Made by a program: the position numbers and the translations under genes
Part shown: positions 32,181 to 33,399 of the stretch, piece by piece
How positions within the stretch are numbered: position 1 is the stretch's first letter
Layout: every line of letters starts with the position of its first letter
The notes under the pieces: generated by a model
What the model was told of the DNA's origin: nothing
The model's input: the letters and a program-made list of their open reading frames with translations, nothing else
The model's database searches: none
DNA from: a virus
Reading direction: 5' to 3' (one strand)
DNA length: 64,000 nucleotides
IMG/VR virus record: IMGVR_UViG_3300022538_000472
Span: 35,139 to 99,138 of that record

Positions 32181-32729
32181 ATGGCAAAGAAGGAACTGAC
32201 CTTAGTAATACCCATTGGAGACTGGGAAGACGAATACCTGCGTGATGAAGTAGATGTTTCCTCAGAAGATGCTATCATTACAATACGTCTTCAGACAGAC
32301 ATCGGCCCAGCGCAGTTAGGCCGTTCCCTTGTCGTAGCACGTGAACGCGATGAAACGAAGTCTAACATCATCCCACAGAACAAGCCACTGCTGAACATAG
32401 CCGCCTCGTTGAGCGCAAGGAGGATATTGACTAAGCGGCAGGAGCCGGTAGAGATGCCAAACGGGAAGGTCTATGATGTTCCCTCATTCGTTGGCCCCAT
32501 GAGCACATCTGATGATGAACCTAATGGGATAAAACCATTCGTCAGGTTGCACGATCCAGAAGCAATAGCACTGGCGCTGGGGTATCTGGATCGTGCAGTG
32601 TCAGGGCATATCTGGAAGCGGCTGCTCGTGTTGGCGGCAAACGATGAGGACATCGTGACGGCGGCGCAGAAGGTGGTTGATAACGTTTGGGAGATGGTGG
32701 AGCGGTTGACGGAGCCAGAGGAGGAGTGA
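32181..32729 (+). CDS. Unknown protein co-transcribed with the TIGR array
   Basis: GGGAGG RBS and ATG 32181, 182 aa. Its TGA stop is the first loop repeat of the array. Confidence 0.75.
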   Translation: MAKKELTLVIPIGDWEDEYLRDEVDVSSEDAIITIRLQTDIGPAQLGRSLVVARERDETKSNIIPQNKPLLNIAASLSARRILTKRQEPVEMPNGKVYDVPSFVGPMSTSDDEPNGIKPFVRLHDPEAIALALGYLDRAVSGHIWKRLLVLAANDEDIVTAAQKVVDNVWEMVERLTEPEEE

Positions 32730-33399
32730 AATCCAGTTTTAGTGTACGAGCCATGTTGCTCATGAAACCCACGACCGCTGTGCGAGCCAGACCTTCAATG
32801 AAACCCAGGCAAGGTATGCGAGCTAACTCAGTGATGAAACCCAGGGAGGTGGTGCGAGCCACGATCCTAGTGAAACCCACTTGAACGGTGCGAGCCACGC
32901 GCGTGATGAAATCCAGTAGCCCCGTGCGAGCCAACCAGGTGATGAAATCCAGCGTGGTGGTGCGAGCCATCTAATTGGTGAAATCCAGAATCGCGGTGCG
33001 AGCCAGTGCGCATGTGAAACCCAGATGCAAGGTGCGAGCCAACCAGAGCATGAAATCCAGACGGCCAATGCGAGCCAGTTGACCGGTGAAACCCACGGTG
33101 CTAGTGCAAACCAGTCGTGTAATGAAACCCAGATAGAACATGAGCCACTTGACGGGTGAAATCCAGCTGAGCGATGCGAGTCAATCTTCGGGTGAAACCC
33201 ACGAATTCTGTACGAGCCAATTAGCATATGAAACCCAACACAACCATGCGAGCCAACGGCGCAGTAAAACTCACATCACCCGTGCGAGCCATCTTGACTA
33301 TGAAGCCCAGCGGCGCAGTGCAAGCCATACACGATGTGAAACCCACGATGCAAGTGCGAGCCATTGCTGTGGTGAAACCCAACCGATGAGTACGTAATT
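32709..33399 (+). repeat. TIGR-type dual-spacer guide array (19 units of 36 nt)
   Basis: Alternating edge repeat TGCGAGCCA and loop repeat TGAAA(C/T)CCA, each separated by a unique 9-nt spacer. 19 units from 32718 to 33399, with one edge 2 nt short. Confidence 0.92.

Follow-up and report, generated by a model that had tools for sequence, protein, structure and literature searches.

The closest described relatives of the locus analysed here belong to the TIGR-Tas system, whose dual-repeat TIGR architecture was reported by Faure et al. 2025 (PMC12045711). They include TaTasR of a Thermoproteota archaeon (Faure et al. 2025, PMC12045711; PDB 9MTY), which has an active RuvC nuclease; SpTIGR-TasH of the Salicola phage CGphi29, a phage-borne dual-repeat array whose Tas protein carries an HNH nuclease; and the TasA-type repressors FpTasA, MbTasA and PlTasA, which combine a coiled coil with a Nop core and have no nuclease. 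TasA proteins act as RNA-guided transcriptional repressors. In this literature the boxes take their names from where they lie with respect to the guide, CCA being box C and UG box D (PMC12045711). For TaTasR, Faure et al. (Table S3, PMC12045711) list the tigRNA ends and a target that joins spacer A to the reverse complement of spacer B, and all nine spacer positions pair with the DNA; tigRNA1, with a C at the end of its spacer A, is active (Faure et al. 2025, PMC12045711), and tigRNAs with the two spacers swapped are functional as well (PMC12045711). In SpTasH, Y289 and H296 form the dyad that cuts the precursor tigRNA. The legend of Fig. S5 in Faure et al. 2025 (PMC12045711) describes "N8A" spacers in the Salicola phage array, which is the one statement of a spacer-end purine rule in the text of this literature, figures excluded; for arrays with a UG box, the accessible text, again excluding figures, makes no mention of such a rule. 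Two of the stated open questions of the TIGR-Tas work of 2025 are what the guides target and how the arrays gain new guides.

Results

The array and its probable operon

The window, by which we mean the whole 64,000-nt stretch of viral DNA that was analysed (positions 35,139 to 99,138 of IMG/VR record IMGVR_UViG_3300022538_000472), contains at 32709-33394 on the + strand a dual-repeat TIGR array of a TIGR-Tas system, an ordinary representative of a kind already described. With parsing begun at 32718, the array comprises 19 units with a period of 36 nt, each composed of 9+9+9+9 nt, and thus 38 spacers of 9 nt each (Table 1). In the consensus sequences of both the loop and the edge repeat, box D (UG) stands first and box C (CCA) last; five internal repeats deviate from UG or CCA. 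The degenerate repeats to which the sequence-only reading had drawn attention, TAAAACTCA, TGAAGCCCA and TGCAAGCCA, are present as it stated, and so is the 7-nt edge repeat after unit 12. The array of TaTasR has the same edge repeat, TGCGAGCCA, with the loop repeat TGAAACCCA, and shares with the window the 9-nt spacers, the 36-nt period and the truncated edge repeats at both ends. The two loci differ in their flanks: a terminator follows the TaTIGR array, whereas in the window the first part of the array lies inside the 3' end of a conserved upstream gene, and tas, not a terminator, comes directly after the last repeat. No Rfam family matches the array, with no snoRNA match at E up to 1, and a search for further TIGR units in the 109.6-kb single-contig phage genome yielded no second array, only one isolated chance match at 35263.

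Table 1. Positions of the array, its units and neighbouring genes and signals in the window, and of long-edge arrays at homologous loci (L numbers)
Feature	Position	Strand	Remarks
Promoter-like site	32004..32031	+	sigma-70-like; TTGACA, 16 nt, TATACT; 11/12 consensus matches
Conserved upstream ORF	32181..32729	+	182 aa from its ATG
Spacer-like sequences in the 3' end of the upstream ORF	32661-32669 and 32704-32712
First edge repeat	32709..32717	+	degenerate, 5'-truncated (ACGGAGCCA); precedes unit 1
19 TIGR units	32718..33390	+	spacer A (N8R), loop TGAAAYCCA, spacer B (N8R), edge TGCGAGCCA
Units 4 to 7	32826..32969	+	units 4 and 7 lie 108 nt apart; TRF 108-nt period
Unit 5	32862..32897	+	A and B spacers resemble B and A of unit 11
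Unit 11	33078..33113	+	swapped relative of unit 5
Short edge repeat	33141..33147	+	7 nt, TGAGCCA, after unit 12; shifts register by 2 nt
Last edge repeat	33391..33394	+	3'-truncated (TACG); ribosome-binding site and tas start codon follow
tas gene	33416..34381	+	321 aa; coiled coil and Nop core, no nuclease domain (TasA type)
Terminator-like hairpin	34476..34507	+	12 pairs, after tas
Long-edge arrays	L016:2640-3000, L040:2150-2560, L092:2700-2980

At its 3' end the upstream ORF reads through the truncated first edge repeat and spacer A1, which form its last codons, and stops at the TGA that opens the first loop repeat. The ORF matches no Pfam family. By tblastn, about 40 of the 93 homologous loci have a relative of it (25-38% identity) in this position, ending where the array starts, and it is therefore a conserved third component of the TasA operon. 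A promoter-like site and a terminator-like hairpin bracket the ORF, the array and tas; the predicted promoter is likely to start the operon in that order, and the array, the conserved upstream gene and the gene for a nuclease-less, TasA-type Tas would probably be read as one co-transcript. Within the 3' end of the ORF there is an exact copy of spacer B17 (GCGGCGCAG), as well as a sequence, GGTTGACGG, that is similar to spacers A11 and A13. These spacer-like sequences could be due to chance in a GC-rich coding sequence, or could be a trace of spacer origin.

The Tas protein

The protein encoded just downstream of the array matches the TasR structure 9mty by sequence (phmmer E 3.5e-24), and TasH is also matched. 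An AlphaFold model built from 36 relatives reached a pLDDT of 90.8, and its best Foldseek matches were TasR and TasH, followed by recombinases of the IS110 family (IS621). The Nop core of TaTasR is the best structural match (VIA-align against 9mty: Z 19.7, rmsd 1.9 A, 195 residues, 35% identity). The alignments with TasH and IS621 begin past the nuclease domains of those proteins (model 13-307 to chain 66-286, and model 11-302 to chain 123-314, respectively), there is no Pfam match to a nuclease domain, and no HNH or RuvC domain lies N-terminal of the coiled coil. The lack of a detected nuclease, together with the fact that most members of the Tas family are only about 243 aa long, makes this a TasA-type protein, unlike TaTasR with its RuvC domain and TasH with its HNH domain. 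Its domain arrangement is that of FpTasA, MbTasA and PlTasA, although MbTasA and PlTasA, compared by architecture, use stem-loop guides. The clade to which it belongs has its own conserved N-terminal segment, and the window's protein adds a beta-rich insertion of about 70 residues (residues ~146-215, window 33851-34060), which is absent from the 243-aa relatives and present in a subset of the family; PlTasA has a hairpin in a comparable place, adjoining box D. As in SpTIGR-TasH, a C-terminal Y/H dyad for guide processing is predicted, in that Y310 and H317 align with Y289 and H296 of SpTasH. By analogy with the characterized TasA proteins, the protein would be expected to bind DNA and repress transcription.

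Relatives of this protein are found with other kinds of arrays. In the arrays of those that end before the Y/H dyad, the loop repeat has 9 nt (TGTAACCCA), whereas the edge repeat is long, hairpin-like and self-complementary (TGCAA...TTGCCA), and the units measure ~47-67 nt. The Ralstonia phage phiRSL1 (NC_010811) has a Tas homologue in ORF034, which carries a transposase annotation; after it, in a gap without any annotated feature, comes a repeat array of ~1.3 kb with a period of ~36 nt and a box D of the AG type (L095:4370-5700). The Microcystis phage Mvi-JY20 encodes a Tas-like hypothetical protein (locus L094), with no array detected within 4 kb.

A purine at the last position of every spacer

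All 38 spacers end in a purine, as the sequence-only reading had noted, with A in 14 and G in 24; given the purine frequency of 0.526 at positions 1-8, the probability of such an outcome is 2.6e-11. It had named homologous arrays as the place to look for the bias, and there the bias is kept. Among 93 fetched loci encoding relatives of the window's Tas, dual-repeat arrays at about 47 homologous loci provided 705 non-redundant spacers, 99.1% of which have a purine at position 9 (G 76%, A 23%), with nearly the same share before loop repeats (98.8%) and before edge repeats (99.4%). The information content is 1.15 bits at position 9 and at most 0.1 bit at every other spacer position. Even the long-edge arrays, which represent a sister subfamily within the same Tas family, have a purine in 98.3% of their spacers (n=178). 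The proposal that the true variability of a spacer is 8 nt plus R is thus borne out. The fraction of A at position 9 ranges from 0 to 1.0 between loci of the family, and the choice between A and G shows no covariation with any other repeat or spacer position; such drift without covariation is the behaviour of a semi-conserved repeat position.

The rule is confirmed for this Tas family, though it is not universal in TIGR arrays. TaTIGR has the window's repeats, yet a purine ends 9 of its 12 spacers and a pyrimidine the other 3, and the spacers of the phiRSL1 array appear, by eye, to be unconstrained. The Salicola phage array, on the other hand, resembles that of the window in that a conserved purine closes its spacers, next to box D but outside it (10/10 parsed by script; 19/20 overall, the second half by eye), the difference being that its box D is AG and the conserved base nearly always A, where the window has UG and G or A. 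The purine rule therefore refines and extends a published remark on one system, and does not define a new kind of element. At the other end of the spacers, C is rare at position 1 of spacer B, following the loop repeat, compared with the position following the edge repeat (11% vs 21% in the family), and none of the 19 B spacers of the window starts with T.

Related spacers

Several spacers in the window had been singled out as related, and they are: A16 and B17 agree in 8 of 9 bases, B9 and B18 share 8 bases at a 1-nt shift, and A11, A13 and A17 share TTGAC. Over the whole array, nine pairs of spacers agree in at least 7 of 9 bases, against 2.3-2.5 expected (P <= 0.0005), and two pairs in at least 8 of 9, against 0.12-0.19 expected (P 0.005-0.016); four of the nine are pairs of the same type (P 0.04) and five join an A to a B spacer (P 0.007). 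At the level of whole units, units 4 and 7 have 13 of 18 spacer bases in common in the same order (P 0.015) and are likely to be diverged duplicates. Units 5 and 11 agree in 14 of 18 bases when A and B are swapped (A5 with B11, B5 with A11; P 0.003), and since swapped tigRNAs work in TaTasR, the two units specify variants of one 18-bp site on opposite strands. Across the family, swapped similarity of this kind barely exceeds the background, and units 5 and 11 stand as a single case.

The two spacers within a unit are mutually complementary slightly above the level of shuffled partners (mean best match 3.69 vs 3.50 nt, z ~4.3, over all parsed dual-repeat loci, L003-L089, and the window at 32718-33390), and spacers facing each other across the edge repeat in the same set show no excess (z ~0.5).

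A clustering of degenerate repeats in the distal half of the array had been taken as a hint of polarity in array growth. The clustering itself is borderline: units 1-10 have 2 degenerate repeats among 20, and units 11-19 have 7 among 17 (Fisher P 0.052). The polarity finds no clear support in the family, where degenerate repeats favour the 5' half in 11 of the arrays upstream of tas and the 3' half in 18, a non-significant trend, with 106 repeat mismatches in the 5' halves vs 126 in the 3' halves. The skew is a weak trend and not evidence of directional growth.

Searches for targets and close relatives

When all 19 guides were run in both layouts and with gaps of 0-2 nt against the whole genome of 109.6 kb, no self-target was found, the best match, 15/18, being also the best among 342 chimeric control guides. 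In viral contigs, three matches were obtained with the degenerate 18-mer that describes the site of units 5 and 11, all of them hybrid variants at chance level, with no second guide match nearby. The closest Tas protein is 66% identical to that of the window, no megablast match in phages and no close locus was found with which spacer order could be compared, and no spacers beyond background were common to the window and other loci.

Discussion

What, then, requires the purine? The preferred interpretation, to which we would give a probability of about 0.6, is that the RNA-protein complex, and not the target, requires it, the base at position 9 being a semi-conserved extension of box D, such that the motif would be RUG and not UG, and each half-guide would have 8 freely variable bases. 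This is favoured by the drift between all-G and all-A arrays and by the precedent of SpTIGR. Processing of the precursor would be insufficient as the whole explanation, since the bias is symmetric in A and B spacers while processing takes place only in edge repeats; the equal selection before the loop and edge repeats suggests instead that each protomer of a symmetric Tas dimer requires the purine. The interpretation has against it that TaTasR tolerates pyrimidines with identical repeats, from which it follows that the RNA fold by itself needs no purine and that any requirement must be specific to this Tas clade. That same insufficiency of the RNA fold can be turned in favour of a rule imposed by the target, by which the clade binds, or acquires guides from, only those sites that have a central 5'-RY-3'. 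In the target layout of TaTasR, spacer A is joined to the reverse complement of B, so that both positions 9 abut at the centre of the 18-bp site; nine of nine nucleotides are paired with the DNA there, and an equal bias in A and B spacers is what such a rule would also produce. It would amount to an internal, TAM-like requirement in a system that has been described as motif-free. However, the TAM screens of TaTasR and SpTasH gave no motif, although it was the flanks and not the centre that were randomised, drift from all-G to all-A between loci is typical of a repeat position and odd for a constraint by the target, the literature regards the conserved A of SpTIGR as belonging to the array, and no natural targets were found against which to check the rule. 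On balance we regard a target rule as a tentative and rather unlikely alternative, and the stronger proposal, that the invariant 3' purine of both half-guides encodes a central 5'-RY-3' requirement in the DNA targets of the TasA clade, as doubtful, if anything more so. A third view of the purine was that of the sequence-only reading, which took RUGA as box C-like and CCA as box D-like, as though each repeat were a K-turn element of the snoRNA type. In the loop repeats RUGA does match the four opening bases of RUGAUGA, the box C consensus of snoRNAs, and Tas proteins do have the Nop fold of box C/D snoRNPs; but the labels are reversed relative to the literature, the edge repeats read RUGCGA and not RUGA, and in the TasR structure UG, at the box D position 3' of the guide, is paired with CCA, at the box C position, in a compact element, K-turns and L7 belonging to snoRNAs and being absent from tigRNAs. 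We therefore consider a snoRNA-type element very improbable, and return to the extended box D as the preferred reading of the purine, under which it may still have a consequence for the target: if position 9 pairs with the DNA as in TaTasR, every target would have a central 5'-RY-3' step.

The related spacers raise a similar choice between mechanisms. Most of the similarity among spacers in the window's array would be due to the copying of whole units and their later divergence by point changes. Throughout the family, 0.93% of unit pairs within arrays agree in at least 14 of 18 spacer bases vs 0.05% between loci, an enrichment of whole-unit similarity of more than 10-fold, and the similar pairs are spaced 36, 72, 108 and 144 nt apart. 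Similarity of at least 8/9 between spacers of the same type is enriched 11-fold, whereas that between A and B spacers is at background (0.068% vs 0.069%). With unit similarity falling at multiples of 36 nt and cross-type similarity at background, whole-unit duplication and divergence is the main visible source of related spacers. The shuffling of half-guides, by which single spacers would move between A and B slots inside the array, had been proposed in the sequence-only reading and would account for the five A-to-B pairs with at least 7/9 identity in the window (1.3 expected, P 0.007), A16 and B17 with their 8/9 among them. Yet two of these five stem from one event, that of the swapped units 5 and 11, no simple mutational path carries a 9-mer over a repeat in register, and the family figures just given show no trace of such movement, all of which makes shuffling improbable. 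The companion idea, repeated acquisition against the same or related loci, fares somewhat better, in that units 5 and 11 form a rare exception to the pattern of duplication that fits repeated targeting of related sites.

The archaeal and eukaryotic box C/D s(no)RNAs that associate with Nop5 or Nop56/58 offer a further comparison. In these as in the TIGR RNAs, each RNA has two short guides, bounded by box C and box D and bound by a dimer of Nop-domain proteins. The TIGR RNAs differ in having neither a K-turn nor an L7Ae or fibrillarin partner, in targeting DNA rather than RNA, and in the tandem array of their units. As for membership of the box C/D s(no)RNAs themselves, the array has no RUGAUGA/CUGA pair, its edge repeats carry RUGCGA, and it has no Rfam snoRNA match. 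For the window's own system we infer guide processing, DNA binding and repression, and likewise a need for the purine in the RNA-protein complex rather than in the target.

Together, the window's array and about 60 relatives indicate that in one large TasA clade the half-guides consist of 8 free bases and a purine. The limit of 8 free bases is relevant to guide design for compact Tas proteins, and, if position 9 pairs, the pattern with which targets are searched becomes 16 free bases and a central RY. Should the central RY prove to be a true requirement, it would be the first built-in target motif in TIGR-Tas, a system described as PAM- and TAM-free, and a usable filter for finding the natural targets of the TasA clade. 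The points on target search and array growth refine a known system slightly and do not amount to a new one. For the second of them, the unit duplicates that are common in the family, along with the swapped pair in the window, suggest that these arrays may diversify largely by copying and mutating the units that they already have.
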